From Methanocellales archaeon (GTDB lineage: Archaea > Halobacteriota > JAWCLZ01): a stretch of 64,000 nt of DNA. Shown piece after piece: positions 17,732 to 36,022 of the stretch. A model generated the notes under the pieces. It saw only the letters and a list, made by a program, of their open reading frames with translations, did not search any database and was not told the origin of the DNA. Position numbers and translations under genes: made by a program. Location: contig JAWCMA010000001.1 in assembly GCA_038850285.1 (NCBI GenBank), positions 53,168 through 117,167 of the forward strand, read 5' to 3'. Within the stretch, counting starts at the first letter, position 1, and every line of letters starts with the position of its first letter.

Positions 17732-17804
17732 CTCATTTAATTGCAAGTTTCTTCATTTAATTTTTGCAAGTTTCTTTATACTTGAACTGGTAATTCTATT
17801 AACA

Positions 17805-19100: not shown

Positions 19101-19140
19101 ATGGAAAAAGATTTATCGCTCTGCACCATCTTAGAAAAAT

Positions 19141-19785
19141 ATGGCTGGCTATCTTGAGAAAATAGAGGAAGCTGCGAAGAAATTCATGGAAAACTCTAAA
19201 CCAGCTCATGATTTTGACCACGTGAAGCGAGTGCTGCGCCTTGTAGAGCGAATAGGTAAAGCTGAAAATGGTGATCTTGAGATTCTACGTGCAGCTGCGT
19301 TTCTCCACGACATTGGAAGAATAGAGGAGGAAAAAACAGGGGAATGCCACGCTGAAAAAGGAGCACTTCTTGCTAGGAAAATTTTAATGGACTGCGGCTT
19401 TCCAGAGAGCAAGATAGAAGCTGTGCTACACTGTATAGAGAGCCATAGATTCAGGGGCAATTTAAAGCCACATAGCTTGGAGGCAAAAATTCTCTATGAT
19501 GCTGATAAACTCGATGCAATTGGGGCAATAGGAATAGCCAGAGCATATTCATTTGGAGGGGAAAGAGGCCAGAAATTATATACCAATAGCACCAAGGTGA
19601 ATAAATTTGAATTGAAAAAACAAATTGATCTAGAGCATACCCCTGTGGTGGAATTCGCTATAAAGCTGGGTAAAATAAAAGAGCACTTGTACACTAAAAC
19701 AGCGCGGGAAATCGCTAGAGGGAGACATAGGTTCATGGTTAAATTTTATGAGCGGTTGCAAAAAGAGGTCGAGGGCGAGCTTTAG
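19141..19785 (+). CDS. HD-domain phosphohydrolase
   Basis: HDFDHV.RV, LHDIG, HA..G, SHRF, DADKLDAIGAIG. Confidence 0.9.
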   Translation: MAGYLEKIEEAAKKFMENSKPAHDFDHVKRVLRLVERIGKAENGDLEILRAAAFLHDIGRIEEEKTGECHAEKGALLARKILMDCGFPESKIEAVLHCIESHRFRGNLKPHSLEAKILYDADKLDAIGAIGIARAYSFGGERGQKLYTNSTKVNKFELKKQIDLEHTPVVEFAIKLGKIKEHLYTKTAREIARGRHRFMVKFYERLQKEVEGEL

Positions 19786-19824
19786 CTCGTGGGAAATTTT
19801 ATATCTAAATAGTTCTAATTCTGC

Positions 19825-20211
19825 TTGGGTGCAATTGTTTTGACTAGCGAGATATCGCTGGTGAAGGGTGAGGGTAGAACAAAAATTTGCTTGTTAGCTA
19901 GAAAAATAGGCAGAGATTTAATTATAACCATAACAGGTGGGAGAGAGCACGCGGGTGCAATTGGGATTGGGTTATTTATAAATGACAAGGCAACTTCCTC
20001 GGTTATAACCCTTCCAAATCACAGGGAAGATGCAATAGCGAAGCAAGCAGCTGAGGAAATAGCTAAGGAGCTGAGGACAAATACAGTGGTTATAGCAGGT
20101 ATTCACTTGGATAATATTACTAGAGAGGAAATAGATGAAGTGGTAAAGAATTCAAAGACATTAGTCGCTGAACTTATCGCTGAATTTAAGAGAAGGGAGG
20201 GGGGAGTTTGA
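19825..20211 (+). CDS. LpdD-like (PAC4-fold) accessory protein of the UbiX/UbiD system
   Basis: GRDLIITITGG..HAGA, TLPNHRED, VVIAGIHLDNITREEI; overlaps the ubiX start. Confidence 0.7.
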   Translation: MGAIVLTSEISLVKGEGRTKICLLARKIGRDLIITITGGREHAGAIGIGLFINDKATSSVITLPNHREDAIAKQAAEEIAKELRTNTVVIAGIHLDNITREEIDEVVKNSKTLVAELIAEFKRREGGV

Positions 20212-20765
20212 GAATCGCAGTTGCAATCACAGGTGCAAGTGGAGTGCTATATGGCATTCGATTACTTGAGGTACTTAGAAACCATCGAGAGGTTGAAAGC
20301 CATTTTATCGTCTCCAAAAATGCTAAGCAGATAATTAAGATAGAGAGCAATAAAACCATTGAGGAGATAAAAGCACTGGCGAATTATTCATATGAAGAGG
20401 ATGAATTACTAGCACCCATAGCAAGTGGTTCCTTTGAGTTGGATGCCATGGTTATAATACCCTGCAGCATGAAAACCCTAGCTGCGATTGCAAATGGCTA
20501 TGCAGATAATCTGATAACTAGAGCAGCTGACGTTTGCCTTAAGGAAGAGCGTAGGTTAATACTCGTGACCAGAGAAACTCCACTTAGCACGATGCACCTT
20601 GAGAACATGCTTAAAGCTAGAAAAGCCGGTGCGATTATCATGCCAGCTTCACCAGCATTTTACATTAAATATGAAAAAGTAGAGGATTTAATTGATTTCA
20701 TCGTAGGCAGAGTACTCGATCTTCTCCACCTTGAGCATAGCTTATATAAAAGGTGGGGCGAATGA
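20208..20765 (+). CDS. ubiX: flavin prenyltransferase UbiX
   Basis: ITGASG, IASGS, PCSMKT, RAADV.LKE.R, RETP, PAFY. Confidence 0.95.
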   Translation: MRIAVAITGASGVLYGIRLLEVLRNHREVESHFIVSKNAKQIIKIESNKTIEEIKALANYSYEEDELLAPIASGSFELDAMVIIPCSMKTLAAIANGYADNLITRAADVCLKEERRLILVTRETPLSTMHLENMLKARKAGAIIMPASPAFYIKYEKVEDLIDFIVGRVLDLLHLEHSLYKRWGE

Positions 20766-22021
20766 GCTTGAGGGATTTTTTAGAGAAATTAAGGCTAGAG
20801 GGACTGCTCCTCAACATCGAGGAAAGGGTTTCACCTGAATTTGAAGCGCCTAAAATCGCTAGAGAGCACTCTAAACCGATTTTCTTCAAAGATGTGGCTG
20901 GGAAAAAAGCAGTGATGAATGTAATTTCAAGTCGGGAAATACTAGCACTTGCTCTAGGAGTAAGGAAAGAGGAAATAGTGAGATATCTCGCCGGGGTAAA
21001 GCCTGAGGGTGAAATAAAAATTGTGGAAGAGATGCCTTTTCTGGAGAGGCAATTCAAAGCTGATTTATCTAAGCTCCCTATAATGCGGCATTATCGAGAG
21101 GATGCAGGTAAATATATAACCGCTGGAGTTGTGATTTCGAGACTTGGCGAGGAATACAATGCCTCGGTGCATCGCATGCTTGTGCTTGATAAGAGAACCC
21201 TTGCGGTTAGATTAGTGCCACCTAGGCATTGCTATCTAATGCATAAAAAAGCCGCGGAGCAACGTAGGGAGCTACCGGTTGGAGTTGCAATTGGAGTGGA
21301 CCCTCTTTTCTTGCTTGCAGCATGCACTAGAGTGCCTGAGTGCAGGGAATTTCAATATACTAGTGCACTATCTGGCAAACCACTTGAGCTTTATGAGCTT
21401 GAGAATGGAGTTCAAGTGCCAGATGCTGAAATAGTATTAGAAGGCTATGTAGACCCTGAGGCTAGAGCTAGAGAGGGGCCATTTGTGGATATAACTGGTA
21501 CTTTAGATATAGTCAGAGAGGAACCAGTGATAAAGCTTAATAGAATATACATGCGTAGAGATGCAATCTATCAAGGTATACTCCCAGGTGGAAGTGAGCA
21601 TAAACTATTGATGGGCGTGCCATATGAACCTAAAATTTATAAAACAGTTGGCGAGGTTGCTCGAGTGAGAAATGTATTACTCACTGAGGGGGGGTGCTGT
21701 TATTTCCACGCGGTGGTGCAAATAGAAAAGCAAACTGAGGGCGATGGCAAAAATGCAATTCTAGCTACCTTCACTGCTCATCCGAGTTTGAAGCACGTTG
21801 TAGTGGTTGATGATGACATCGATATTTATAATCAAGTGGAAGTGGAATATGCAATTGCCACGCGCGTGCGGGGAGATAGAGATATATTGATAATACCCCG
21901 CGCTAGGGGTTCATCTTTAGATCCAGCTATTGCAGAGGATGGAACTACTACCAAAGTAGGGATAGATGCCACGAAGCCTTTGATTGGAAGAGAGAAGTTC
22001 AAGCGAGTTGAAATGGAATAG
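20762..22021 (+). CDS. UbiD family decarboxylase, probably anhydromevalonate phosphate decarboxylase
   Basis: D.GKYIT.G, N.SVHR, EGPFVD, GG..YFHAVV, VVDDDID, GSSLDP, KVGIDAT. Confidence 0.88.
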   Translation: MSLRDFLEKLRLEGLLLNIEERVSPEFEAPKIAREHSKPIFFKDVAGKKAVMNVISSREILALALGVRKEEIVRYLAGVKPEGEIKIVEEMPFLERQFKADLSKLPIMRHYREDAGKYITAGVVISRLGEEYNASVHRMLVLDKRTLAVRLVPPRHCYLMHKKAAEQRRELPVGVAIGVDPLFLLAACTRVPECREFQYTSALSGKPLELYELENGVQVPDAEIVLEGYVDPEARAREGPFVDITGTLDIVREEPVIKLNRIYMRRDAIYQGILPGGSEHKLLMGVPYEPKIYKTVGEVARVRNVLLTEGGCCYFHAVVQIEKQTEGDGKNAILATFTAHPSLKHVVVVDDDIDIYNQVEVEYAIATRVRGDRDILIIPRARGSSLDPAIAEDGTTTKVGIDATKPLIGREKFKRVEME

Positions 22022-22091
22022 CTTTAGGTTTTCAATAGCTAGTTTTTAATAGCTCTAGGTTTTTCAATAGCTAGTTTTTAATAGCTCTAGG
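22017..22091. repeat. about 32-bp tandem duplication of the trm1 3' end
   Basis: AATAGCT(T/C)TAGGTTTT(T)CAATAGCTAGTTTTT x2 plus a partial third copy. Confidence 0.85.
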
Positions 22092-23149
22092 ATTTCCTTC
22101 AAATTTGCATTGGTTTTGAAGCCAATGCTTGAGAAATGCGTTCTACTTGCTTTAAAACCACACTTCATAAGTTTCTCTATAACCTCTTCTATTTTAAGGG
22201 GTGCTATTTTGAGTATTTTGCATAACTTATGATGGTTATAATAAGAGAAAACTTGGATTTCTTCCCTGCATAGTGAGAGTAATTTCCTAGCTTGCTCTTT
22301 CTTCCCGAGCTCTTTTTTCTCAACTTCCTTGAGAGTTTTGCTTAAGAATCTTTTATCCCCTAGCTCGCCCAACCAGAGGATACCTCCAGCTTTCAAAATC
22401 CCCCCACAGTTTGGGCACTTAGCTGGTAATTGTGGAATGATTCCCTTGATAGATGCTCTATATAGGCATGTGAAGCAGTGCACGAAATAGCCAAGTTTTT
22501 CTAATGTTAAATCTGCCTTCGCTGCTCCCTTCTCTATCTTTATGTAAACTCTATAGTAATGCTGCTCTGCATATGAAAGCAGAGGCTTTGCTGCTTTATC
22601 ATATTTCGCGAGCTCACGCGCGATTTTACCTATCAATATTCGCACTCCAACTTCATTGTAGTACTCAGTTTTAAGTGGAAATGCTTGATAATTGCGAATC
22701 CCTGCTTTGAGATGTGAACCGCATAGTGGGGCTGTATCTGTTGCAGTAATGCAGAGCAGTTTTCTAGCTGATCTACAAGCTGCATCGAGAAATGGCACTG
22801 GAGATCCAAAGGGGTCGATATCAACGATGTCGAAGTGCTCCTTAATGAGGAGTATGTTTGCATTCATATTGCTTGGCCAGGCTAGGTCTTCTAAGCGATT
22901 GAGAGCTATATTTTGCTTAATTGCCTCGTAAGCGCTGGTATCTATATCATTCACAGTGCATTTGAGTCCAACTTCCTTAGCAATTCTAATTCCGCGAATC
23001 CCACTTGCAGCTAAAGCATCGAGAAATGTCATACCTAGGTTGGAGAAGGCTGCTATGCATGCTATGCTTATATCTCTATTTAGCTCCATTTTTGGGTTGT
23101 AGAAAACTTTACTTGGTTTAATCACCACTTGACCTTCTTTAATCAGCAT
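22064..23149 (-). CDS. trm1: tRNA (guanine26-N2)-dimethyltransferase Trm1
   Basis: VFYNP.MELNRD, ASGIRGIR, DIDPFGSP, TATD, Zn finger, SRTHF. Confidence 0.95.
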   Translation of the reverse strand: MLIKEGQVVIKPSKVFYNPKMELNRDISIACIAAFSNLGMTFLDALAASGIRGIRIAKEVGLKCTVNDIDTSAYEAIKQNIALNRLEDLAWPSNMNANILLIKEHFDIVDIDPFGSPVPFLDAACRSARKLLCITATDTAPLCGSHLKAGIRNYQAFPLKTEYYNEVGVRILIGKIARELAKYDKAAKPLLSYAEQHYYRVYIKIEKGAAKADLTLEKLGYFVHCFTCLYRASIKGIIPQLPAKCPNCGGILKAGGILWLGELGDKRFLSKTLKEVEKKELGKKEQARKLLSLCREEIQVFSYYNHHKLCKILKIAPLKIEEVIEKLMKCGFKASRTHFSSIGFKTNANLKEILELLKTSY

Positions 23150-23651
23150 TCAATCTCCCCGCTATCTCCCTCGCAAGGGAATCTCTATTATGCTCATTAA
23201 GCACATATACCTCGAAGGTGGATCGAATTCTCTGGATTAAAGGGTGTGTGGAACGCTGGTGAAATGTAACTAGCATGGATTTATTACTCTGCAGTGCAGT
23301 TTCAACTGCTAATAGGAAGTCCTTTGAATACAGCTCCATTGGAGCAATTTCATCTATAACTATTAAATCACAATTCAAGGCATTCTTAATCGCTTCTACT
23401 CCAACTTCATTTAAATCCCTTAGGTTCACCTTGTATTTGCCAACAATTGGGCCCTCTTTTTGATTCACATGTGCAAGTATGCCTTTTTTACCAGTTGCGA
23501 TATCAACTATTTCAAATCCAACTCTCTGCCTCCCAACTCTTATATCTCCGCTTATCATCCCACCTGCTTTTTTGCTTATGCTTGAGATCACTTTTTTGCA
23601 GAGAGTTGACTTTCCAATCCCAGGCCTGCCTGTGATAGCAATTCTAATCAT
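23139..23651 (-). CDS. nucleoside-triphosphatase, THEP1 family
   Basis: ITGRPGIGKST, RVGF, VGKY.V, IDEIAPME. Confidence 0.9.
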   Translation of the reverse strand: MIRIAITGRPGIGKSTLCKKVISSISKKAGGMISGDIRVGRQRVGFEIVDIATGKKGILAHVNQKEGPIVGKYKVNLRDLNEVGVEAIKNALNCDLIVIDEIAPMELYSKDFLLAVETALQSNKSMLVTFHQRSTHPLIQRIRSTFEVYVLNEHNRDSLAREIAGRLNAD

Positions 23652-23694
23652 GCAAAAGCAATATCACAGCGCAGGCATATTTAGATTATGAATT

Positions 23695-24852
23695 ATGAAT
23701 ATGATTTCAATTAAGATCAAGCAAGATGTGCTCTTCTGGATCTATTTCTCCATCTTTTTAATTTCACTCAGCTTAGGCGCTTATAATCCGCTCATCCCAC
23801 TTTATGCTCAGCAACTTGGTGCTTCTTACTTGGACTTAGGAATAATTGGATCTGTTTGGGCTCTGCCCTATGTATTCCTCCCTATTTTAATAGGGATGTT
23901 TTCTCAGAAGATAAATAGACAATGGATATTTTTCACTGGAATTGGAAGTAGTGCTTTAACTGCAGCTCTATTTCCATTTGCTCAAAATGTATCTCATTTA
24001 ATTGCAATTCGAATCTTTGGAGGCATAGCCTATGCATTTATGTGGCCAGTAGTAGAGGCAATAATCTCAGACATCACCACCAACGAGGCTAGAGCAAAAG
24101 CAATGGGTAGATATAGCTTCTCCTGGGGAATTGGCTTCTTAATTGGGCCAGCGATTGGGGGATTTGTTCTTGAAAAAAGCGGTTTTAATTTACTCTTCTT
24201 AATCTCCTTCTTAATTGGCCTCCTCGCAAGTATTATTGCAGTTAATTGCTTGAAAATTCCAAGTGCTAGGGGGGAAGTTGTATTTTCTCAGATTAATTTT
24301 TCAATGAAAACTCTTGCATCGCTCTATCTCGCAATAGCTAGTTACAGCTTAGCACTTGGCACTGTTTTCTCCCTCTTCCCTGCTTATGCCAGTGTGAAAG
24401 GTATTACTTCCCTGGAGATTGGCATTCTCTTCGCAGTTCTAGGCTTAGTTAGAGTAGTGGTTTTCCTTCAATCTGAAGCGATTTCGAAGATTGGGGAGAA
24501 AAAAGCTATATTAATTGCCTTGCTAGCGCAATCTTTGATATTGCCATTGCTACCTTATCTCCAGAGTTTCTTAGCCTTGCTTTTTGGCGTGGCTTTGCTT
24601 GGGATAACTCTAGGCATTCTCTCGCCCATAACCATAGCTGCAGTTTCAAAGATGATCCCTAGGGAAAAAATTGGACTTGCGATTGGTGCAGTTGAAACCA
24701 CCTTTGGCATAGGGTGGACTCTAGGTCCGCTAATCGGGGGAATTGCAGCTCAAAATCTAGGCGAGGAATATCCATATATAATAGCGGGTTTCATCAGCTT
24801 ATTCGTTGCAATTCCAATTACTAGAGAAATCCTAAAGCATAAATATGGATAA
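23695..24852 (+). CDS. MFS transporter
   Basis: About 12 TM segments; GFLIGPAIGG and GWTLGPLIGG. Confidence 0.88.
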   Translation: MNMISIKIKQDVLFWIYFSIFLISLSLGAYNPLIPLYAQQLGASYLDLGIIGSVWALPYVFLPILIGMFSQKINRQWIFFTGIGSSALTAALFPFAQNVSHLIAIRIFGGIAYAFMWPVVEAIISDITTNEARAKAMGRYSFSWGIGFLIGPAIGGFVLEKSGFNLLFLISFLIGLLASIIAVNCLKIPSARGEVVFSQINFSMKTLASLYLAIASYSLALGTVFSLFPAYASVKGITSLEIGILFAVLGLVRVVVFLQSEAISKIGEKKAILIALLAQSLILPLLPYLQSFLALLFGVALLGITLGILSPITIAAVSKMIPREKIGLAIGAVETTFGIGWTLGPLIGGIAAQNLGEEYPYIIAGFISLFVAIPITREILKHKYG

Positions 24853-24870
24853 GATTAAAAACCAACTGCT

Positions 24871-25356
24871 ATGAAACAGCTCTGGGCTCCTTGGCGAATG
24901 AAATACATAAAATCTAAAAAAAAGCAGAAATGCTTCCTCTGCCTTGAGTCAAAAAAGGATGAAGAACTAGTGATATATAAAGGTGAGAAGTGCTTCGTTA
25001 TCTTAAATGCCTATCCCTATAACAATGGACATATCATGATAGCTCCCTATCGACATATCTTGAGGCTTCAGGACTTAAGTGAGGAGGAAACTCGAGAGTT
25101 CTTCGATCTAACTAAGCAAAGCTTGGCAGTTTTGGATCAAACGATGAAGCCAGAGGGCTACAATATCGGCATCAACTTAGGTAAAGCAGCTGGAGCTGGA
25201 GAGGCACATTTGCACCTCCACGTAGTACCAAGGTGGGTAGGTGATACAAACTTCATGCCCATCTTAGCAGATGTCAAGGTAATGCCTGAGCATCTAGATC
25301 GAAACTGCAAAATATTGAGAAGGGCATTTAAGAAGCATGGCACTGGAAGTATTTGA
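24871..25356 (+). CDS. HIT family hydrolase (Ap4A phosphorylase-like)
   Basis: LWAPWR, CFLC, NAYPYNNGH, HLHLHVVPRW.GD.NF. Confidence 0.92.
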   Translation: MKQLWAPWRMKYIKSKKKQKCFLCLESKKDEELVIYKGEKCFVILNAYPYNNGHIMIAPYRHILRLQDLSEEETREFFDLTKQSLAVLDQTMKPEGYNIGINLGKAAGAGEAHLHLHVVPRWVGDTNFMPILADVKVMPEHLDRNCKILRRAFKKHGTGSI

Positions 25357-25882
25357 AGAGAGAAACGAGTCGAATTTCTCAGGCAGCATTATTCACATCG
25401 ATACAGTTGGGAATATTAGAAATGAGTTCACTAATTCTAGAAGATACTCTGAGTTATCGCCTTTTATTGTTGGATTAATCGATAGAAATAAACTCAAAAT
25501 TATGTATGCCCTAGATAAACCAAGCATATCATTATTTCGCGGTCGAGTAATTGCGTTGATCAATGAATTCCAGAAGCCATACTTTGCCTTCAATGCAACG
25601 GTTGTTCAAGCAGTTCTATATCACTTCACTGGCCAGAAGATCGATATAGCTGGAGAGCTAAATAGAAAAGCCTTTGAAAGTAGGCTATTTGCAATCCACG
25701 CTTTAAACATACCTCAATATGGCGATCCCTTCTCTGATCAAGATAAACTCTGCACTCAAGCTTGGCTCAAGGGAGAGATTGAGAAATGCGTGGCACACGT
25801 TAGAGCTTGTCTCTTAAAAGAACGGGATATATTTATAAAGCGCGGGTTTCGAAAGCCTGAGGAAATAAAGTTGAGGAGGTGA
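25337..25882 (+). CDS. hypothetical protein, possibly a degenerate RNase H-fold/DEDD exonuclease
   Basis: 181-aa ORF overlapping the HIT gene; IIHIDT, FAFN and AHVRACLLKE are spaced like ExoI/II/III (inference). Confidence 0.55.
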   Translation: MALEVFEERNESNFSGSIIHIDTVGNIRNEFTNSRRYSELSPFIVGLIDRNKLKIMYALDKPSISLFRGRVIALINEFQKPYFAFNATVVQAVLYHFTGQKIDIAGELNRKAFESRLFAIHALNIPQYGDPFSDQDKLCTQAWLKGEIEKCVAHVRACLLKERDIFIKRGFRKPEEIKLRR

Positions 25883-26006
25883 AGGGGTTTAAAAGAGAAG
25901 TCTAAGGTTTAAAAGTGTAAAGGAGCTTAAAAAAGAAGTGAATTAATATTTTAAGAACTGATAAAAAGTGTGAATGTTAAAAAATTAAAAATGGAAAAGG
26001 TGTGAA

Positions 26007-26231
26007 ATGCGTGTAACGAGAAAACTTGAAACTGGCGATTCCTACTTCGATGTCTATTTCTGCGATGAATGCGGGAGAGAAGTGAATCCAATGATGTGCG
26101 TGGAAATAAGACTGCCATTTAACCATGAATCAATACTATGGTGCCTTGCGTGCTTGAGAAAACTGGGTTTATATAATGTTATTATGCGCTATCAAAGTCA
26201 CTTCGCAGATAAAGATAGAGTGTGGAGATAA
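26007..26231 (+). CDS. small Zn-finger protein
   Basis: CDECG...WCLAC; AAGGTG upstream of the ATG. Confidence 0.65.
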   Translation: MRVTRKLETGDSYFDVYFCDECGREVNPMMCVEIRLPFNHESILWCLACLRKLGLYNVIMRYQSHFADKDRVWR

Positions 26232-26245
26232 CTTGAGGAGATAAC

Positions 26246-26851
26246 TTGAGGGAAGAAGTTGTATTTCCAAGTGAGGAGGGCCTCTTATATGGCACGCTTT
26301 TTGGGGTTGGCGAGCTAGGTGTGGTGCTCTGTCCTCCTCATCCTTTATATGGTGGTTCTAGGTTTGACCATCGCTTAATTGAAATTGCACTTGAACTTGA
26401 GAGAAATGGAATAACTGCCCTCACTTTTGACTACCGCAGAGAGTTCGCCCGTGGGAGAGGTGAAATTCAAGATGCAATATCTGCACTTCGCTATTTTCGA
26501 ACCCGAGTTAAAAAAATTGGTATCTTTGGGTATTCATTTGGAGCAGTGGTTGCCTCCAACGCTGCCTTTAAATTTGATTTAAGCATAAGTGGAAGTGCAT
26601 TCCTCGCGATTTTGAAGCAAACTGATGATATTCAAGCTATGGTGAATCAAAGGTCACCCAAGCTCTTCATACATGGAAAAAGAGATCAGATCGCTCCCTA
26701 TGCTGAGTTCGAGGAGCTATATCAAAGTGCAAGCGAACCTAAGCAGTGCTTGATTCTTGAAGACGAAGACCACTTTTTCCACCATAGCGTTGAAGAAATT
26801 GCTATCTCAGTGGCGAAATTCTTCAAAAGGTGCTTCGAATTTTATAAATAA
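26246..26851 (+). CDS. alpha/beta hydrolase (COG2945-like)
   Basis: PPHPLYGG, GYSFG nucleophile elbow, HG..D, DHFF. Confidence 0.9.
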   Translation: MREEVVFPSEEGLLYGTLFGVGELGVVLCPPHPLYGGSRFDHRLIEIALELERNGITALTFDYRREFARGRGEIQDAISALRYFRTRVKKIGIFGYSFGAVVASNAAFKFDLSISGSAFLAILKQTDDIQAMVNQRSPKLFIHGKRDQIAPYAEFEELYQSASEPKQCLILEDEDHFFHHSVEEIAISVAKFFKRCFEFYK

Positions 26852-26872
26852 CTCTATATTTTAACCATAGTT

Positions 26873-28483
26873 CTATAGCTTTTTAACTACCCTCTCTATA
26901 ACTTCACTTGGGCTGATTGCTTCAAGTGTTCTAGCTGTTATATCCTCTAGCATGACCTCAATTGCCAATTTAAGGGCTTGCTCATCCACATATAAAATTC
27001 GATGTGCATTTGTCTCTCTACTTCTAGCTGAGAAATAAAAGGGAAGCGTCAGGGCAGAGGCAAGCTGAAGGCATTTATATATAGCGCGTGGAGAAGCGTG
27101 CACTAATTGATCTTCTTCCACGAATTCCTTTACGAAGATTTTAAGGCTCAAGGTAACTCTCTTGATTTGATCCTCTAGGAACTGTATCTTAGCTGGCTTG
27201 TATTTCCACATCCCAGTGTTTATGGCATAGATCAAGGTTACGTGGTCTCTAATTAGCTTTGGAGTTATCTCTTCATATCTACCTACACCTAAAGCGTGTC
27301 TCTCAATTGACTCCACTATAGAGAGGAATCTATCCTTGGTCATGCGGTGCAAGCGGCAGAAGCAGCGGTCTTCAATTGCACGGAAATTTGGATCAGGCAC
27401 GGTTAATCTATAGCCCCTTCTCTCTACTTTTACATTGTAATTTGCATTCAAGAAGGAGGTGAAAACATATGGTCCAATTGTTTCATGCGCTGATTCATAT
27501 TTCAATGGCTTTTGCTCCATCGCGAGTTTGAGTCTCTCCACCATTCCACGTTCATGGAAGAACCACTCATTGAACTCCGGGACTAAGAAGACCATTTTCT
27601 TGCCTTCGTAGTACTGCCCCATTTGGAGAAACATATATGGAGTTATGCCCCCGCAGTATCTATATCTCCCAGGTATGCCATGTGGCTCGAGCTGGAGTTT
27701 TTCATTGCCCATCACAAAATCTATACTGGAATAAGTTTTTCCAGTTCCAATATCCCCGAAGAAAGCAAGGTGAAAGCCTGTACTTGTGAGGCGCTCGCCA
27801 TTTGGCTTGAGTACTTCCACATCTGCAATTCCAAATAACTGGCTCCATGAGAGGAGTACGTCTATAGCTGCCACCCCACCATATTCCTCGCAGTATCTAT
27901 AAATCGAGGTCAAGTCAATTTGCTTCGCGAATTCAATAACTTTCTCTTCATCAATTTCCTTGAGATAATTCTTCAAGCACGAGTCCATTTTTTTGACCAA
28001 TATCTGCTCGCTGGGCTTGGTCTCTTCTTTTATAGTGGTCTTGGTTTTTCTTCTTATGTACTCCATGAGGTGCTTTGCATTTGGCACTATGTATCGAGCG
28101 AAGTGATGTTTATAGCTCTCCACCGGGCGGATTTGAATTTGATAGGATTCTTCTTTTTCATGGAGAGCAATGAAGAAGTAATGCTCATAGGTATGCAGCA
28201 AGCTTGAAATTGCATCTTTAATTAACTTTTCATCCGCATAAGTTTTGTCAGCTTCAATCACAATTCCATCAGGTGCTATTTCTATTACATCTCGAATTAT
28301 CTCTCTCCCAATTGCCATTCTAGCATTTCTCACTAGTTCTTCCCATTCTTCTCTACCGAAGAGGAAGGTGCCAGCTTCATCGTTTATGCTACGAGTCGCT
28401 AGTTCCTCTGCAGTAAAAATGCCTATGCTATTGAGATCTTTCATTCGCTTTCTACCTATTCCAGAGATTTCAAGCAGCTCCAT
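26873..28483 (-). CDS. HhH-domain / MCM-like AAA+ ATPase
   Basis: N-terminal ISGIG...L.SIGI.T.EELA HhH; GDIGTGKT Walker A; VPEF Walker B variant; LAMEQ; ANYN; EDR; SPR. Confidence 0.72.
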   Translation of the reverse strand: MELLEISGIGRKRMKDLNSIGIFTAEELATRSINDEAGTFLFGREEWEELVRNARMAIGREIIRDVIEIAPDGIVIEADKTYADEKLIKDAISSLLHTYEHYFFIALHEKEESYQIQIRPVESYKHHFARYIVPNAKHLMEYIRRKTKTTIKEETKPSEQILVKKMDSCLKNYLKEIDEEKVIEFAKQIDLTSIYRYCEEYGGVAAIDVLLSWSQLFGIADVEVLKPNGERLTSTGFHLAFFGDIGTGKTYSSIDFVMGNEKLQLEPHGIPGRYRYCGGITPYMFLQMGQYYEGKKMVFLVPEFNEWFFHERGMVERLKLAMEQKPLKYESAHETIGPYVFTSFLNANYNVKVERRGYRLTVPDPNFRAIEDRCFCRLHRMTKDRFLSIVESIERHALGVGRYEEITPKLIRDHVTLIYAINTGMWKYKPAKIQFLEDQIKRVTLSLKIFVKEFVEEDQLVHASPRAIYKCLQLASALTLPFYFSARSRETNAHRILYVDEQALKLAIEVMLEDITARTLEAISPSEVIERVVKKL

Positions 28484-28560
28484 TTCGAGGATCACTATAG
28501 ATTGTTTTTTGAAGATAAAAACTTTTACATAGGGGAAAAAAGAAATAAAGAAATTGGACT

Positions 28561-28707
28561 ATGGGTTTGTGTTTAGATTGTAGAATTAAACTTGAAGCTA
28601 AACTAGCTGAGGAGGATATATTTTTTGAGTTTTTAGAGGCTTTTCAAGAGAAGCCTAAGCACGTTGGAGAGATCTGCGAATGCTGTGGAAGGCAATTCTT
28701 TGATTAG
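28561..28707 (+). CDS. 48-aa Zn-finger microprotein (absent from the ORF track)
   Basis: MGLCLDCRIKLEAKLAEEDIFFEFLEAFQEKPKHVGEICECCGRQFFD; two CxxC pairs; fills the gap. Confidence 0.6.
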   Translation: MGLCLDCRIKLEAKLAEEDIFFEFLEAFQEKPKHVGEICECCGRQFFD

Positions 28708-30428
28708 CCTCTGGCTCTCTGCTGTTCATACATTTCGATGATCTCCTTCACTGTATTTGCATCTCCAGCGCTTTTATCCTGCCTTATGAATCCCACCGCG
28801 CGGGGGAAGCGCAGAGCGTAACCTATTTCTTTTTCAGTTCTCCCGCAAGTGTGAAGGGGGGAGCGGGTTATTTCATCAGCCATAACTGTTATGACGTACT
28901 TCGGTTCAACCCATACATCTGGGATGATGAGGGAATCTACTCTAGCGTGGCGATGTGGAATTGCAATTTCATCAAGCATCCCCTTGAGTTTTACCCAGTT
29001 TTCCTCGCTGAATCCAGATCCAACTTTTGCAATTGTCTTGAAGGTATCGCTTTCTTCATCGTAAACTGAGCATAAGATAGCTCCAATTCCAAGTTTTGCT
29101 CTAAAGCCCTTTCCCTTGAAATAGCCCACTATACAGACATCTATAGTATCAGCTAGTTCGCCTTTGTAGCTTCTCTTGAGCTTTATCCAGTTAAAATTTC
29201 GAGCACCTGCAGAATATGGAGCATCTAATCTCTTTGCAACAACTCCCTCCAGGCCTTTTTCCACGAATTCCTCGAAATAGTTTTTAATCTCCGTGGGATC
29301 GCCTGTGTAGATCACCTTTGCAACATCTATTGGTCCATCTGATGTGATTATTTGCTCCATTTTCTCGCGGCGCTCAATATATGGCTTTTGAGTATAATCC
29401 ACTCCATCCACAAATAGTAGTTCGAATGCAAAGAGCTTCAAGGGATATTCCTTGGCTAGTTCCTCCACGCCGTGTTTGCGCTTGCGTGTTATTGTAACTT
29501 GAAATGGAAAGAGCTCTCCTGTTTCTTCATTATATGCAAGGGCTTCTCCTTCTATAATTGCTTGCTTCGCTTTAATTTGCCTCTTAGCTGCTTCCACGAT
29601 CTCTGGGAACATCGCGGTGGTGCGCTCGAGATTTCTCGAGAAAATTTCCACCTTATCTCCATCTTTATGTATCTGGCATCTAAAGCCATCGTATTTAGGT
29701 TCAATCGCAGCTTTACCTATCTTTTGAACTATATCCTCGGATGAGGGGAGGCGCTCGCAAAGTGCCATTCTAATTGGGGAGAAAACCTTTATTTTGAATT
29801 CCCTTATTCCCTTTTCTCCCTTCTCAAAGAGGGTTTTAGCTACTAGTCCTAGGTCTGAGCATAGGTTATATGCTCGCTCAAGTTCAGGTCGAAATTTTCT
29901 AGTTCCAGCTTTAGCTTGTGCTAGAGCGTCTAATATGGTTGGATCTCCTATTCCAAGTCTTAGCCTTCCTGCTACGAATCTAGCGATATATTTTGATTCA
30001 ATGGGTGAAGCATTGGAAAATAAATTAGCTAGAATTGTTATCTTTTTCTCAACGCTTCCTTCACCAGTTGTTAGAGCCACTTTTAAAAGTCGGTCGTAAA
30101 CCTCGCTTACCTCCAACTCTGAGCCTTTGCTTCTGGAAAATTTCTCAGCTACGATTCCCAAGTCACCTGCATTCTTGAATTCCTCCTCAACCCTCTGGAG
30201 AGTTACTCCAGCTGATTGAGAAATCGCTCGAATAAGCAATTTCTCGCTAACCCCCATTTCAACTCCGCGAAATGGAGGTAGAATTTGCTCTTGACATAGA
30301 TATATTATCTTCTCAATTTCATTGCTATCCGCTTTCTTGAAAAGCTCAGCTAGAATATTGAACATCTCTAGCCTCTTTGTAGTTGCCTCGAGTTTTTCAA
30401 AGTAACTTGCTAGCTCTGAAAATTTCAT
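28704..30428 (-). CDS. lig: ATP-dependent DNA ligase
   Basis: DNA-binding domain with GDLG, KYDGFR motif I, EGE, EGVVAK, WIKLK, LRFPR. Confidence 0.96.
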   Translation of the reverse strand: MKFSELASYFEKLEATTKRLEMFNILAELFKKADSNEIEKIIYLCQEQILPPFRGVEMGVSEKLLIRAISQSAGVTLQRVEEEFKNAGDLGIVAEKFSRSKGSELEVSEVYDRLLKVALTTGEGSVEKKITILANLFSNASPIESKYIARFVAGRLRLGIGDPTILDALAQAKAGTRKFRPELERAYNLCSDLGLVAKTLFEKGEKGIREFKIKVFSPIRMALCERLPSSEDIVQKIGKAAIEPKYDGFRCQIHKDGDKVEIFSRNLERTTAMFPEIVEAAKRQIKAKQAIIEGEALAYNEETGELFPFQVTITRKRKHGVEELAKEYPLKLFAFELLFVDGVDYTQKPYIERREKMEQIITSDGPIDVAKVIYTGDPTEIKNYFEEFVEKGLEGVVAKRLDAPYSAGARNFNWIKLKRSYKGELADTIDVCIVGYFKGKGFRAKLGIGAILCSVYDEESDTFKTIAKVGSGFSEENWVKLKGMLDEIAIPHRHARVDSLIIPDVWVEPKYVITVMADEITRSPLHTCGRTEKEIGYALRFPRAVGFIRQDKSAGDANTVKEIIEMYEQQRARG

Positions 30429-30490
30429 TCACACCACATGGGATATCTTTTATAATCACGTCTAATAATTCTAATGGTGTAATCACAAGT

Positions 30491-31669
30491 ATGGCAAGCA
30501 TCGAAGACCGAGTCCTTCTACTACTTTCAATCAAAGAGCCTGGGAAGAAAATCGATTTTGAGCATATAAGGGAAAAGATAGTTAGAGATGAGAAATCAAG
30601 GGATAAATCAAGGGATAAATCAAGGGATAAATCAAGGGATAGAGATACGATAGAGGATACAATAGAGAATGCAGCAGGTGGTTTAGTTAATGAATTGAAG
30701 AAGTGCCTTGAAACTCTAGCGAGGCAGGGGTTAATTAAGGAAGAAAGAGGCAGCTATGCTATAACTGAGAAAGGGGAAAGGAGAATTCTAGAGCGGTTAA
30801 AGCAAGTGGGCGGGGATTTGAATCTATCCTATCGCTTGGTCTTGAAGGCCAAGAAATACTATCCAGTTATTGGAGAAGCAATGCTTCCATTCCTCAGGGA
30901 TAGAGCTGTTAGTGTGATCAAAGTTTTCAGCGATGAAGTTGAGCCGTTGAGTAAAATAAAGCCACTCTTCGTTAGATATGCTCGCTATAAACCTATTCCA
31001 GTTTTCATAGAGATCAAAGACCTTGAGACTTTATTGAGATACGTTGACCAACACGCCATTGATTTCATACCATATGTTCACAGACTTCAAGCTAGAGAGC
31101 CTGACTGGTTCATCCTTGATCTCGACGCGGGTGAAGAACTTCAAAAGCACCCTATGAGTTTTGAGCTGATTAAAAATGTGGCTCAAAAGGCAGTTGAGGT
31201 ACTAGAGGAAAATGAAATCGAGCCTTGCATAAAATTTAGCGGCTCGAGAGGGATTCAAATCTGGGCAAAGTTTGATAATAGCAAGCTTCAAAGCGAGGGG
31301 GATTTATTTGCAGTTTATAGAAGACTTGCTGTGACTGTGCAGCAAAAAACTGAGCAAAAACTTCAGAAGGAGTTTAAAAACTTGATCAACCCCAACAAGC
31401 CAATTACCACTTCCCAAGTTGCTAAGAAAGAAGAAAGAGCTGATCAAATTTTGATAGACTGGAGCTCTATGAAGCCAAATGGAGATGTTAGAGCGCCCTT
31501 CAGCATGCACTATAAAACTGCTTTAATCTCAACTCCTATACCTAAATCACATCTCCTTGAATTTGAAATTCAAGAAGCTCAGCCTGAGTATGTGATGAGA
31601 AATCTAGCTAAATTAACCTCCGCCTTTGAACTTAGAGCTTCTAATCCGACTAAGCTGCTGAGGAATTGA
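30491..31669 (+). CDS. LigD polymerase-domain-like primase-polymerase (AEP) with N-terminal winged helix
   Basis: PDWFILDLD, KFSGSRGIQ, ILIDW, RAPFS, STP; N-terminal L..L...GLI......Y.IT.KG wHTH; ATG 30491. Confidence 0.82.
   Translation: MASIEDRVLLLLSIKEPGKKIDFEHIREKIVRDEKSRDKSRDKSRDKSRDRDTIEDTIENAAGGLVNELKKCLETLARQGLIKEERGSYAITEKGERRILERLKQVGGDLNLSYRLVLKAKKYYPVIGEAMLPFLRDRAVSVIKVFSDEVEPLSKIKPLFVRYARYKPIPVFIEIKDLETLLRYVDQHAIDFIPYVHRLQAREPDWFILDLDAGEELQKHPMSFELIKNVAQKAVEVLEENEIEPCIKFSGSRGIQIWAKFDNSKLQSEGDLFAVYRRLAVTVQQKTEQKLQKEFKNLINPNKPITTSQVAKKEERADQILIDWSSMKPNGDVRAPFSMHYKTALISTPIPKSHLLEFEIQEAQPEYVMRNLAKLTSAFELRASNPTKLLRN
30593..30667 (+). repeat. in-frame 12-bp tandem repeats (AAATCAAGGGAT x4, KSRD; GATACRATAGAG x2, DTIE)
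   Basis: Read directly from the sequence. Confidence 0.92.
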
Positions 31670-31670
31670 A

Positions 31671-32909
31671 ATGAGGATATATAGCTTAAGCAGTAGCAAT
31701 AGATGTGTCTTCTGCAAGGGATCTAAATTCCTCTGCGGCAAAGAGCGATGTCCCATTCTTGTGAAGCTATATGCGCAGCAGCAAACTAAGCCATTGATCG
31801 ATTCCCTGAGTTTAGAGGGCTCCTCACCCCCTGGGGTTTTCATTGGTAGAATTGGCTATCCCTATGTTTCAATAGGTCCTTTAGTTCCACCTATCCAAGG
31901 TGATACTTTTCTATTAGATACCCCTGAGCTCTGGGTGGGCAAGAGCATAGATGAAATAGTGAATTTCAGATTCCAGCTCGTTAGAGGGAAATATAGAGTG
32001 AATGTGAGAAACGTTGAGGGTGAAAGGATAGTTGAGGCTACTCGAGAACTCGCTATGGCTTTAAACCCAGCTGATGTGGAGGTTGAGTTTCATAAAAAAC
32101 CCCGGGTAGAAATAGCGCTTGATGATGAAGTGCAGCCTCACGGCCCGAGTGCACCTTTGAAGAAGATTGATGTAAATTCAATTAAAATAGACAGGAGAAT
32201 TGAAAAAGCATATAGCGATACTGATTTAAAGGCAAGTGAAGCGGTTTTGAATCTCTATAGAAGTGGAGTGTTGATATCCAAAATACAGCGTGCCTTCAGC
32301 GCAGGCGTATTAGGGGAGAAAAAAGCTAGGCGATTTGTGCCAACTAGGTGGAGCATCACCGCGGTTGATAGCATTATCTCAAGTACATTGATGGAAAGAG
32401 TTAAAGCAAATCCCTTGATAAATGAATTCCAAATTTATGAATCAATCTCACTTGATAATAGATTCATCGTGATCCTCATGCCATTTTCTTGGAGCTATGA
32501 ATTAATTGAAGCTTGGTATCCAAATACAATTTGGAACCCAACTGGTAGAGAAACTGTGATATTCTCTGACCACGAGGGCTTCTCAGGGAGAACCACTTAC
32601 GCGAAAATTGGAGGATGCTATTACGCCGCGAGACTAGCTGTTTGCGAATATCTTGAAAAAATAGGGAGGCAAGCTAGAGTATTAATTCTTCGGGAAGCGC
32701 ATCCTGGCTATATAATGCCAGTTGGCGTGTGGAATGTGCGGGAGAGTGTAAGAAATGCTCTTCGAAGCGCACCTCATAGGTTTAGCAGTTTGAGGGAGGT
32801 ATTCAATTATATCACAGCCAAGCTCTGCATACCTATTCAAAAGTGGCTGCTTCATAGTACGCTACTCAAGCAGCTGCTCCATCAAAGGACTCTTGAGGAT
32901 TATACTTAG
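31671..32909 (+). CDS. nreA: DNA repair protein Nre
   Basis: CVFCKG..LCG..RCP, SPP.VFIGR.GYP, VPTRWSITAVD, GGCYYAARL, PVGVW.VRE, C-terminal PIP-like QRTLEDY. Confidence 0.92.
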   Translation: MRIYSLSSSNRCVFCKGSKFLCGKERCPILVKLYAQQQTKPLIDSLSLEGSSPPGVFIGRIGYPYVSIGPLVPPIQGDTFLLDTPELWVGKSIDEIVNFRFQLVRGKYRVNVRNVEGERIVEATRELAMALNPADVEVEFHKKPRVEIALDDEVQPHGPSAPLKKIDVNSIKIDRRIEKAYSDTDLKASEAVLNLYRSGVLISKIQRAFSAGVLGEKKARRFVPTRWSITAVDSIISSTLMERVKANPLINEFQIYESISLDNRFIVILMPFSWSYELIEAWYPNTIWNPTGRETVIFSDHEGFSGRTTYAKIGGCYYAARLAVCEYLEKIGRQARVLILREAHPGYIMPVGVWNVRESVRNALRSAPHRFSSLREVFNYITAKLCIPIQKWLLHSTLLKQLLHQRTLEDYT

Positions 32910-32918
32910 AGGGGAAAT

Positions 32919-33731
32919 ATGCAAGTGAGAATTAGGGAGATAAAATGTAAAACTGCACTCTCTCCCTCTCTTTTACCTGGCTATGACTATGCTTTAAATC
33001 CATATAGAGGCTGCGAGCATGCTTGCATATACTGCTATTCCCCCTCAGTGCTTAGATGCAGGGAAAAATGGGGGACATTTGTAGAGCCAAAGGTGAATAT
33101 AGCTCGCGTACTATCTCGAGAGCTAAGGGATAAGCCAAAGGGAGTTGTTGGAATAAGCAGTGTCACTGATCCCTATCAGCCTCTGGAGAGGAAATATGAG
33201 CTGACAAGGAGATGCTTGGAATTACTTTTGAAGTATAATTTTCCCATCTCAATTCAAACCAAATCAGCATTAGTAATGCGAGACCTAGATTTGATCAAGC
33301 AGTTTTCTAATAAAGACGTTGGGTTAACAATCACCACCATTGAAGATGAATTGCGGAGGAAATATGAACCCATTGCGAGTAGCGTGAAAGAGCGATTGCT
33401 TGCTTTGAGAAAGATAGCTGAGTGTGGAATCACCAGCTGGGTCTTTATTGGTCCCATAATGCCATTTATAAGCGATAGAAATGGCTCTCTTGAAGAGCTG
33501 CTTAGAGCAATTGCAGATTCAGGGGTGAGCTACATCTTAATCGATAAATTGAGAATGAAGCCAGGGATCTGGGATAATATTGAAAAATTCCTCGTTGATT
33601 ATGATGCAACATTGATTCCTAGTTACAAGGAGATATTATTCAAGCGGGATGATAGTTACTTTATTAATGTGAGGCGTAGAGTAATGGAGCTATGCAAGCA
33701 GCTAGGTTTGAAGTGCGAGTCTTGCTTTTAG
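32919..33731 (+). CDS. spore photoproduct lyase-like radical SAM protein (COG1533)
   Basis: LNPYRGCEHACIYCY, SSVTDPYQP.E, QTKS.L..RD.D, EP.AS...RL. Confidence 0.88.
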   Translation: MQVRIREIKCKTALSPSLLPGYDYALNPYRGCEHACIYCYSPSVLRCREKWGTFVEPKVNIARVLSRELRDKPKGVVGISSVTDPYQPLERKYELTRRCLELLLKYNFPISIQTKSALVMRDLDLIKQFSNKDVGLTITTIEDELRRKYEPIASSVKERLLALRKIAECGITSWVFIGPIMPFISDRNGSLEELLRAIADSGVSYILIDKLRMKPGIWDNIEKFLVDYDATLIPSYKEILFKRDDSYFINVRRRVMELCKQLGLKCESCF

Positions 33732-33741
33732 GCATTAGCAT

Positions 33742-33906
33742 TCATTTCTTCTTCAAGCCCTTGAGCATTTCCTCGATTTTTGGCTCAGTAACGATGTGGC
33801 CTAGCAAGCGAACCTCTACTTCAATGCTGCCGCATTTGGGGCATTTTTCAGGTCGCTCGACAGCTAAGAATTCGTGGCTGCATTTCTTGCATAGCCAGTT
33901 TGGCAT
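33742..33906 (-). CDS. small Zn-ribbon protein
   Basis: MPNWLCKKCSHEF...PEKCPKCGS. Confidence 0.65.
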   Translation of the reverse strand: MPNWLCKKCSHEFLAVERPEKCPKCGSIEVEVRLLGHIVTEPKIEEMLKGLKKK

Positions 33907-34533: not shown

Positions 34534-34725
34534 ATGCAAAGCACAGAAAGATATTATATAATTGGCTTGCTGTCCTTCACTATAGGAGAATTGATTCTCA
34601 GCTTGGTTGAAAGCGATTTCAAATTCCCCAGCTATATCGTAGTTTCCACCTTGTATACATATTTCTTCATAAAAGCTGCAAAAGCAGCGTTTAAAAAAGC
34701 CAAGACGAAAAATTATGAACTCTGA
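34534..34725 (+). CDS. small putative 2-TM membrane protein
   Basis: Two hydrophobic stretches; overlaps the start of the downstream pilin-like gene. Confidence 0.4.
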   Translation: MQSTERYYIIGLLSFTIGELILSLVESDFKFPSYIVVSTLYTYFFIKAAKAAFKKAKTKNYEL

Positions 34726-36022
34726 AGATGCAGTTTCAGATGCAATTGGATTCATTTCAATATTTGCCTTAACCATTGCCTCAGTGGGATTTATATTCAC
34801 ATTGAGCTTGCCTGAAATCCTCGATTCCCAAGAGGTTGTTAAACTACAAAATATTGAGCAAGCATTCACAGTGCTTGATTCAAAAATTAGCTTAAGCGCA
34901 CTAGGCGAGTCACCATCTCAAGTTGTAGCACTAGATACCTCCAGCGGAAGCGCTGCAATTTTAAGCGATAGTTCACTGAAAATCCTAATGCGTCAGAGCG
35001 GAGTGGATCATATGATTTACAACAGCACCCTTGGAACTCTACTTTATGAATTAAATGGCGAAGAAATCGCATATGAAGGAGGCGGAGTGTGGAGGAAATA
35101 TGCAAATGGAGGTGTGGTGATGGTAAGCCCTCCTGAGTTTCATTACAATGGCGAGACCCTTACCTTTCCAATTATAAGATTGAATGGCAGTGCTAGAGTT
35201 GCAGGTGGCATTGCAACACTGCATGCTAATTCAGAAGGGATAACTGTATTCTTCCAAAATACAACTGCAAATCCGCTATTCCAAAACCCTGTTTATGGGA
35301 GTACTACCATTGTAATTGTTAAAAGCAAATACTATAAAGCTTGGGCGGAGTATATGCAGGAGCGCACTGAATTTCATGGCGTGGTTGCTCACGATAATCT
35401 AAGCGAAGTAGCAGCTTATTTAAATTCAAGGCCAGCTCCATCGATGAACTTCACCATCCCGCTTGATATAATTGGTCTAAATACCTCTAACTCCACGCCA
35501 GTCAGCAATTTTACATTTGAATTCTATAATGTGACCAGCAACTTCGAGCTTGAATTAATAGGCAGCAATTCTCAAGGAAGGAATTTGAGTATCACCATGC
35601 AAAAGAAATCAGGAGAGGGGACAGAGGGCATTGCGGTAGCTATATCTTATCAAGAGCAAGCCAAAGAAATTGAAAATTGGGAAGCAGTAAAATGGATTGC
35701 AATTGAAAATGAAACAGCCTTTATCAACCTTTTGAATACCTCCATAAATCTAAGTTATACAAGCAATGATAATTCCTGGAGCTGGCTCTATGAAGAGGTA
35801 CCATATAATAAAAGCTATACCAAAGGCATGCAAATTGATCTACCCCTTGCAATTCAGCATTACTTCCGCTTGCTCGGCCCTACTTTCACATTTAATTATG
35901 GCTCAAAACATCAAGGATTTAATGAAACCTCGGGCAGGGTTTATCTTCAATATGAATGCATGCCTCCTGTGATTACCTTTTTACATATAGTGGAACATAA
36001 AGTGAATTTAAATATAGTATAG
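34715..36022 (+). CDS. archaeal type IV pilin-like/adhesin protein with class III signal peptide
   Basis: EDA|VSDAIGFISIFALTI N-terminus, IAYEGGGVW, SPPEFHY..TLTFP, many N-x-S/T sequons. Confidence 0.75.
   Translation: MNSEDAVSDAIGFISIFALTIASVGFIFTLSLPEILDSQEVVKLQNIEQAFTVLDSKISLSALGESPSQVVALDTSSGSAAILSDSSLKILMRQSGVDHMIYNSTLGTLLYELNGEEIAYEGGGVWRKYANGGVVMVSPPEFHYNGETLTFPIIRLNGSARVAGGIATLHANSEGITVFFQNTTANPLFQNPVYGSTTIVIVKSKYYKAWAEYMQERTEFHGVVAHDNLSEVAAYLNSRPAPSMNFTIPLDIIGLNTSNSTPVSNFTFEFYNVTSNFELELIGSNSQGRNLSITMQKKSGEGTEGIAVAISYQEQAKEIENWEAVKWIAIENETAFINLLNTSINLSYTSNDNSWSWLYEEVPYNKSYTKGMQIDLPLAIQHYFRLLGPTFTFNYGSKHQGFNETSGRVYLQYECMPPVITFLHIVEHKVNLNIV

Follow-up and report, generated by a model that had tools for sequence, protein, structure and literature searches.

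Mycobacteria possess a ligase and a primase-polymerase, LigC and Prim-PolC, which form an excision repair complex and interact with base excision repair (BER) enzymes, as set out in parts of PMC5663958, and for which structures are available (PDB IDs 5OP0, 6SA0, and 6SA1). An adjacency of the genes for Nre and for SplB, a radical S-adenosylmethionine (SAM) protein, has already been published (parts of PMC4929162, describing Giroux and MacNeill 2016), and NreA of Haloferax volcanii acts in PCNA-dependent repair of mitomycin C damage (parts of PMC7776575 and PMC4929162). In bacteria, SplB-like genes are found in SOS-linked operons (PMC3765255); these and LigC/Prim-PolC come closest as precedents for the locus described below. 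A further point of reference is the nonhomologous end joining (NHEJ) of archaea and bacteria, with the Methanocella paludicola polymerase (PDB ID 5DMU) as an archaeal example. Here we describe a four-gene locus on a 64,000-nucleotide stretch of a Methanocellales archaeon (contig JAWCMA010000001.1, positions 53,168 to 117,167), called the window below, in which the gene for a DNA ligase diverges from the genes for an archaeo-eukaryotic primase-polymerase (AEP) fused to a winged helix-turn-helix (wHTH) domain, for Nre, and for a radical SAM protein. The four-gene set joins two pairs that recur separately in other archaea, and the locus is best read as two recurrent archaeal gene pairs sharing one putative bidirectional promoter.

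The locus resembles LigC/Prim-PolC in that the genes for a LigD-Pol-type AEP and an ATP-dependent ligase form a pair, here and in three sampled loci elsewhere (L020, L064, and L079), and in that the predicted structure of the window AEP finds its best matches among Prim-PolC chains. The archaeal AEP family also lies beside genes for endonuclease V (EndoV) and an endonuclease III (EndoIII)-like glycosylase, recalling the BER enzymes of the mycobacterial complex. Unlike Prim-PolC, the archaeal AEP has an N-terminal wHTH domain and a motif II Gln in place of His, and the sequence similarity is remote. LigC has a two-domain architecture, whereas the window ligase is of the three-domain Lig1 type. 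Nre and the radical SAM enzyme are additions to the mycobacterial scheme.

With the published NreB-SplB pair (parts of PMC4929162), the locus shares an Nre from the radical SAM-adjacent clade, a Cys4 motif at its N terminus, a C terminus resembling a PCNA-interacting protein (PIP) motif, and a radical SAM gene close behind; it differs in having a ligase on the other side of a shared promoter region and, in this genus, an AEP upstream of the pair, with which the pair is probably cotranscribed. The window Nre belongs to the same family as Haloferax NreA (Nre_N and Nre_C domains) and ends, like it, in a PIP-type motif, but it falls into a different clade, and NreA is not linked to a radical SAM gene; the NreA phenotype could be carried over to the window Nre only by analogy. 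The radical SAM protein has the core, the CxxxCxxC motif, and the broad COG1533-like affiliation of spore photoproduct lyase (SPL) and SplB, but it scores below the cut-offs of both SPL models. NHEJ likewise combines an AEP of the same broad fold with an ATP-dependent ligase, but the window cluster has no linkage to Ku, the canonical NHEJ polymerase is a separate gene in the sister genomes, and the Ku-linked ligase of those genomes is a 313-aa two-domain enzyme.

The initial annotation knew of no description linking the four genes. The full set was not found in the literature searched, where only the Nre-SplB adjacency turned up, so that part of the link is not new. The word "ligase" is absent from the main text of PMC4929162, and Giroux and MacNeill 2016 may mention ligase or AEP neighbors of nreB.

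The four-gene locus and its conservation

The assembly under study (G000; 1.28 Mb, 39 contigs, 93% complete, 1.5% contamination) carries the window on contig C1, and near-identical DNA is present in hot-spring metagenome runs. Its GTDB family comprises four species, of which G000, G001, and G002 form one genus and G003 a sister genus. All four genes lie where the initial annotation had placed them (Table 1), and the spacers it gave are likewise correct: the start codons of the ligase and AEP genes stand head-to-head at a distance of 62 bp, AEP and Nre are separated by 1 nt, and Nre and the radical SAM gene are separated by 9 nt (AGGGGAAAT), a purine-rich run ahead of the radical SAM start. The ATG at 30491 as the AEP start is backed by 17 homologues, with whose N termini the sequence MASIEDR aligns. 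An alternative TTG start at 30383 would run into the ligase gene and was rejected, as the homologue N termini favor the ATG.

Table 1. Coordinates of the genes and the intergenic region of the locus, numbered from the first nucleotide of the window
Feature	Position	Strand	Basis
Ligase, three-domain (DNA-binding, adenylation, oligonucleotide-binding [OB]), ATP-dependent, 574 aa	28704..30428	-	Pfam and NCBIfam
Divergent intergenic region, 62 bp	30429..30490	.	Sequence; putative bidirectional archaeal promoter
AEP (primase-polymerase), wHTH-fused, LigD-Pol/Prim-PolC fold, 392 aa	30491..31669	+	PF21686, motifs, AlphaFold2 model
Nre, radical SAM-linked (NreB-type) clade, 412 aa	31671..32909	+	Nre_N and Nre_C, tree
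COG1533-type radical SAM protein, 270 aa	32919..33731	+	Radical_SAM; CxxxCxxC at C32/C36/C39

The 62-bp region holds two A/T-rich TATA-like boxes, TTTATAAT and TAATAATT, and is conserved in an alignment of all four versions of the locus, namely, those of C1, C12, G002, and G003. It may be read as a pair of overlapping divergent promoters, and the tight gene spacing together with a conserved, putatively bidirectional promoter region fits an operon.

A second version of the whole cluster is found on contig C12 of the same assembly, where C12:1-15519 is colinear with C1:70931-86911 (window 17764-33744) at about 83% identity, and a third one occurs in G002 (L017), with 81 to 83% DNA identity to both C1 and C12. 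In G003, a ligase of 80% identity stands head-to-head with an Nre (78%) that is followed by the radical SAM gene (66%); it is precisely the AEP that is absent, and the conserved intergenic region stands directly before Nre-radical SAM. The flanks of the cluster are syntenic with the sister genomes. All four genes are under purifying selection, with dN/dS values of 0.05 to 0.14 in 12 of 12 pairwise comparisons among C1, C12, and G002 (0.05 to 0.07 for the ligase), and the GC content is even (0.41 to 0.42). The genome of G001 says nothing about an absence of the cluster there, its contig C11 beginning at window position 35184, 1.4 kb downstream of the cluster.

The C1/C12 pair represents either a true segmental duplication or cobinned fragments of a sister population. 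Other pairs of stretches with 83 to 88% identity are found in G000 (C32/C33, and C1:67387-70400 versus C3:11302-14278), which with the C1/C12 pair amount to about 27 kb, as would be expected of cobinned fragments, and the bin shows signs of mixed populations. Against cobinning counts the remainder of C12, which has no counterpart elsewhere in G000 and has orthologues of 82 to 86% identity in G001 and G002.

Two recurring gene pairs

The AEP is matched by LigD_Prim-Pol (Pfam ID PF21686) with 82 bits (cut-off, 27.4), and by the ligD_pol equivalog TIGR02778 with 69 bits, below its cut-off of 214.7; the N-terminal wHTH gives a weak HTH_45 match of 24.5 bits, below the cut-off of 25.5. Residues D210, D212, and D323 are invariant in all 18 sequences and align to the catalytic Asp triad of LigD Pol (DLD, DWS; PDB IDs 2FAO and 2IRU). 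Motif II reads SGSRGxQ, and its Q256, also invariant in 18/18, occupies the position where 2FAO and 2IRU carry His. At the sequence level, the AEP profile reaches solved LigD-type polymerases with at most 27.8 bits. The AlphaFold2 model (pLDDT, 91.1) finds its best Foldseek match in Prim-PolC (PDB ID 5OP0; E, 2.4e-11; target TM-score [TMt], 0.62), with nearly equal matches to LigD Pol domains (PDB ID 2R9L; TMt, 0.66) and to the M. paludicola NHEJ polymerase (TMt, 0.67).

The wHTH-AEP of about 375 aa constitutes a compact conserved family across at least six archaeal lineages, repeatedly head-to-head with repair genes, with members in Hydrothermarchaeota, Methanomethylicia, Nitrososphaeria, Bathyarchaeia, Hadarchaeota, Njord- and Hodarchaeota, and a few Methanocellales. 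A profile search of 1.84 billion representatives returned 28 representative clusters at an E value of ≤1e-30, all of at most 388 aa; proteins of LigD length match the profile only at an E value of about 1e-13 or weaker, and a search for longer homologues yielded no fused AEP. The cluster AEP is a member of a family distinct from the NHEJ polymerase, the canonical NHEJ polymerases of the sister genomes scoring 254 to 281 bits on PF21686 versus about 80 for the cluster AEP.

We examined the neighborhoods of 80 AEP loci from different genomes, with flanks of up to 8 kb; only 50 of these loci have 2 kb or more on each side. EndoV is the commonest neighbor, at 19 of the 80 loci (17 of Hadarchaeota type, L080 to L096, plus one each from Hydrothermarchaeales and Hodarchaeaceae, L019 and L078), mostly head-to-head at 87 to 516 bp. 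An HhH-GPD/EndoIII-like glycosylase gene lies beside the AEP in nine loci (among L023 to L032 and L061), six of them head-to-head at 116 to 146 bp. These neighbors, which belong to loci from other phyla, point to a role of the AEP in excision repair. A ligase is adjacent in four loci: it is head-to-head in G002 and in the two Hydrothermarchaeota loci L020 and L064 and codirectional in L079 (G058), so that the ligase-AEP pair recurs in Hydrothermarchaeota and in another Methanocellales metagenome-assembled genome. Nre is adjacent in two loci, with a head-to-head arrangement in the Hydrothermarchaeum locus L018. Ku is not among the recurrent neighbors in the 80 loci, for which cluster representatives were scanned. 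No description of the wHTH-AEP family or of its EndoV and glycosylase links was found in the literature searched.

Two further observations concern the AEP. In the Njordarchaeota-type loci L056, L060, L069, L070, L071, and L075, the AEP adjoins another radical SAM protein, of 375 aa and with C-terminal zinc ribbons, which is a second, independent AEP-radical SAM adjacency. Within the window AEP, a perfect 12-nt tandem repeat is found at 30593 to 30667, its 4.1 copies encoding KSRD repeats. Together with another 12-nt repeat, it lengthens the wHTH linker by about 22 residues; both are missing from C12, G002, and other homologues.

The ligase carries all three domains above the curated cut-offs (PF04675, DNA_ligase_A_N, 154 bits; PF01068, A_M, 190 bits; PF04679, A_C, 59 bits) and matches TIGR00574 with 470 bits (cut-off, 217.8). 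Its closest solved structure is the Sulfolobus solfataricus enzyme (PDB ID 2HIV; 494 bits), human Lig1 reaching 281 bits, which agrees with the Lig1/crenarchaeal type read from its motifs in the initial annotation. The suggestion made there that it may be a second ligase is borne out as well: the window ligase (type A) is not the sole ligase of the genome, since further Lig1-type paralogues are found at C34:3952-5607 (551 aa) and C4:5776-7493, the three being pairwise 33 to 39% identical. The C34 paralogue is nearest to the Pyrococcus, Thermococcus, and Archaeoglobus enzymes, and the C4 paralogue is broken only by an assembly N-gap. All three Lig1-type ligases are conserved across the family, in a genome of 1.28 Mb: 4/4 family genomes have types B and C, and 3/4 have type A. 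In a 31-row tree, the window ligase falls into a nine-row clade (SH-aLRT, 98) which includes all six AEP-adjacent ligases, the G003 ligase, and two ligases of family f7, while type C clusters with the main ligases of neighboring families. The type A ligase clade is thus repeatedly tied to the AEP.

The third protein contains Nre_N (345.6 bits) and Nre_C (143.8 bits), a Cys4 motif at the N terminus, and the C-terminal PIP-like sequence QRTLEDYT, which matches the Qxx[L]xx[aromatic] pattern; a PIP-like end is also present in C12, in G002, and in most other sampled Nre proteins. Because of this motif, Nre is probably tethered to PCNA, the gene for which is present in the genome. The comparison with Haloferax NreA in the initial annotation holds for the motif and not for the clade. 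The window Nre scores 274 bits on the NreA_Halo model (NF041387), below the cut-off of 700, and falls into an 11-row clade with 10 radical SAM-adjacent rows (SH-aLRT, 98; quick IQ-TREE of 43 rows, with the 288-aa L104 dropped). In that tree, the other copy of genomes with two Nre proteins falls into the other main clade. On the evidence of its sequence, the window Nre is therefore assigned to the NreB type and not to NreA; an NreA-type copy was not found in G000, whose two Nre matches are both cluster copies.

Nre is widespread, being found in 187 of 201 genomes of the phylum. We sampled 40 Nre loci from 36 genomes, picked from 150 listed matches to spread over families and hence not random. 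A radical SAM homologue is adjacent in seven of the 40, all seven within the clade of the window Nre, and four of the 40 have a ligase no more than 1.5 kb away. The AlphaFold2 model of Nre (pLDDT, 89.4) returned nothing from the PDB at an E value of ≤0.001 by Foldseek. A wide structure search with Nre (VIA) gave Z scores below 8, with an OB-fold-like stretch at residues 44 to 172 and one like S5 domain 2 at residues 250 to 370; such resemblances, which we take as leads and not as assignments, might suit a DNA-binding adaptor.

The radical SAM protein matches Radical_SAM (Pfam ID PF04055) with 56.7 bits. Its scores on the PA0069, Rv2578c, and mob_pairB models (145 to 162 bits) are all below the cut-offs, as are those on the two SPL models (PF20903, 19 bits with a cut-off of 27; TIGR04070, 26 bits with a cut-off of 400), and the protein is therefore classified by sequence as loosely SPL-like and not as an SPL orthologue. 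The cysteines C32, C36, and C39 are invariant in nine of nine Nre-linked homologues, and a profile of these nine found no solved relative. A third COG1533-like radical SAM gene of the assembly (G000:C25:7186-8064; 292 aa, 130.6 bits on the PA0069 model) is unlinked to Nre.

Possible functions of the locus

From these genes we infer a function for the locus, along with its biochemical steps, the contacts among the proteins, and the kind of lesion. We give about even chances to a coregulated module for lesion processing, gap filling, and sealing that is tethered to PCNA, that is, an archaeal analogue of LigC/Prim-PolC joined to NreB and its radical SAM partner. In one pair, the wHTH AEP would fill short gaps and the Lig1/Sso-type ligase would seal the nick, by analogy with mycobacterial Prim-PolC/LigC; in the other, NreB and the radical SAM enzyme might recognize a lesion that is bulky or of cross-link type and either process it chemically or reverse it. 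Events could then begin with NreB on PCNA marking the lesion, continue with the action of the radical SAM enzyme and with filling of the ensuing gap by the AEP, and end with sealing by the ligase. The spacing, the promoter region, and the recurring pairs fit the PCNA-coupled pathway proposed in the initial annotation, with the correction that it would not be a Ku-free form of end joining. The four genes are joined repeatedly and independently: ligase and AEP in three arrangements, AEP and Nre in two phyla, ligase with Nre-radical SAM in two genera, and Nre with the radical SAM gene widely.

More tentatively, the wHTH-AEP may be a polymerase dedicated to short-patch repair within a widespread archaeal excision repair system, wired here together with the ligase to NreB-radical SAM as a complete PCNA-tethered pathway. 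Its partner would then vary by lineage, being EndoV, an EndoIII-like glycosylase, a Lig1-type ligase, or Nre.

Several observations weigh against a single module. Only one genus has the full four-gene order (C1, C12, and G002, mutually 81 to 83% identical in DNA), and outside G000 it occurs in one of the 80 AEP loci, that of G002, so that the linkage is close to a peculiarity of this lineage while the pairwise links recur elsewhere. The flanks of 76/80 AEP loci contain no ligase and those of 78/80 no Nre, and among 61 related genomes only three have the AEP. Since the G003 locus does without it, the AEP is either not needed there or a later addition. The three other ligase-Nre adjacencies (L100, L130, and L131) combine a different ligase type with an Nre of the NreA clade. 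The motif II Gln replaces the His of characterized LigD polymerases, and polymerase activity of the AEP is a prediction; the Nre fold yields no catalytic clue. Fused Nre or AEP proteins were not found in searches for longer homologues, which counts slightly in the same direction.

Part of this evidence suits two independent modules, ligase with AEP and NreB with radical SAM protein, which merely share a damage-responsive promoter region and hand over no substrate, an arrangement that we consider possible but would not expect. NreB-radical SAM occurs without ligase or AEP in six of the seven radical SAM-linked sampled loci, the ligase and AEP face each other or run together without Nre or radical SAM in L020, L064, and L079, and G003 does without the AEP. 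Moreover, direct reversal by a radical SAM enzyme such as SPL leaves no gap that needs filling. On the other side, the ligase and Nre-radical SAM of G003 keep their shared conserved promoter region without the AEP, and Nre adjoins the AEP in an unrelated phylum (L018); with these cases, three independent links connect the two supposed modules.

It is improbable that the locus serves a Ku-independent, microhomology-type end joining, in which the AEP would extend or align broken ends for the ligase to join. The AEP fold is also near to NHEJ polymerases (the 5DMU and 2R9L matches given above), and G000 has neither an intact Ku nor, in its 93% complete assembly, a canonical NHEJ polymerase. The observation in the initial annotation that the window contains no Ku or phosphoesterase (PE) gene is upheld, and contig C1 has no Ku gene either. 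The label "Ku-less" is nevertheless misleading. G000 keeps a stand-alone PE gene on contig C24, the sole PE match in the assembly, and its sole Ku match is a decayed 65-aa fragment with stops (C30:867-1043, L007); by our reading of the sequence, this fragment adjoins a transposase-like open reading frame (ORF). Ku and PE are thus encoded elsewhere within the lineage, in part in G000 itself, and none of the sister genomes G001, G002, and G003 lacks a full-length Ku, a canonical NHEJ polymerase, or PE. In G001 and G002, Ku is followed by the short LigD-type ligase. The G001 contig that bears Ku and the short ligase (C37, L160) matches the end of G000:C33 over its first 154 nt with 99.35% identity, so that the lack of an intact Ku in G000, an incomplete bin with signs of mixed populations, may be an artefact of assembly or binning. 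The usual AEP neighbors are, moreover, EndoV and glycosylase genes and not Ku. Since G002 carries the cluster plus the ordinary NHEJ set, including a polymerase of 254.6 bits on PF21686 next to 79.8 for its cluster AEP, the cluster is a pathway separate from NHEJ and not a variant of the Ku-dependent one.

That the ligase is a housekeeping, replicative enzyme with incidental neighbors seems hardly likely, if marginally less far-fetched than a mobile origin. It is a full three-domain Lig1-type enzyme, and a ligase of the type A clade is the only ligase match in nine of nine searched genomes of families f7 and f11. In the family studied here, by contrast, types B and C are found in every genome, and type C falls together with the main ligases of neighboring families, so the concern raised in the initial annotation that this might be the sole replicative ligase does not apply. 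In addition, the same ligase clade is repeatedly AEP-linked, and the ligase-promoter-Nre-radical SAM arrangement is kept across two genera.

We give very little credence to a mobile-element remnant with the AEP as a replication primase: many prokaryotic AEPs are encoded by mobile elements (parts of PMC5862659), the AEP is patchy among relatives, and two 83%-identical versions of the locus lie in one bin, but the 12 scanned ORFs flanking the four genes contain no integrase, transposase, capsid, or plasmid gene family of Pfam (the 540-aa P-loop protein among the neighbors being uncharacterized), GC content, synteny, and strongly purifying selection speak against it, and the AEP family is most like LigD-type repair polymerases and not PrimPol-helicase fusions.

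Flanking genes and implications for archaeal repair

Two small zinc-ribbon ORFs (CxxC...CxxC) border the cluster. The first (48 aa, window 28561-28707, plus strand) overlaps the ligase stop codon and is kept in C12 and G002, and the second (54 aa, window 33742-33906, minus strand) is kept in G002 only, C12 stopping short of its position; both have 77 to 88% protein identity to their counterparts. A 540-aa protein encoded 208 bp downstream of the ligase (window 26873-28495, minus strand) has an N-terminal helix-hairpin-helix and a Walker A motif (GDIGTGKT), and its structure neighbors in the ESM Atlas are MCM/AAA-like and primase-associated domains. It was considered as a fifth component and rejected, as among the 140 loci L017 to L156 it is found only in G002, in addition to the C12 copy. 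Just 3' of the cluster lies a gene for a DUF7289/DUF7308 protein (window 34715-36022), of which the sister genomes have paralogous copies with 67 to 69% DNA identity.

The finding is less striking than first proposed, given that the four-gene order is confined to one genus, that part of it is published, and that the Ku-less framing fails. It bears on two open questions of archaeal repair, namely, what role Nre and its SplB-like radical SAM partners play and which polymerase and ligase finish excision repair. The locus places the NreB-radical SAM pair, a ligase, and a Prim-PolC-like polymerase at one promoter region, which suggests a testable order of events. A complete PCNA-tethered pathway, if true, would provide the first mechanistic context for Nre and the archaeal SplB-like enzymes. 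The more general lead, and the one most worth following, is the pan-archaeal wHTH-AEP family.

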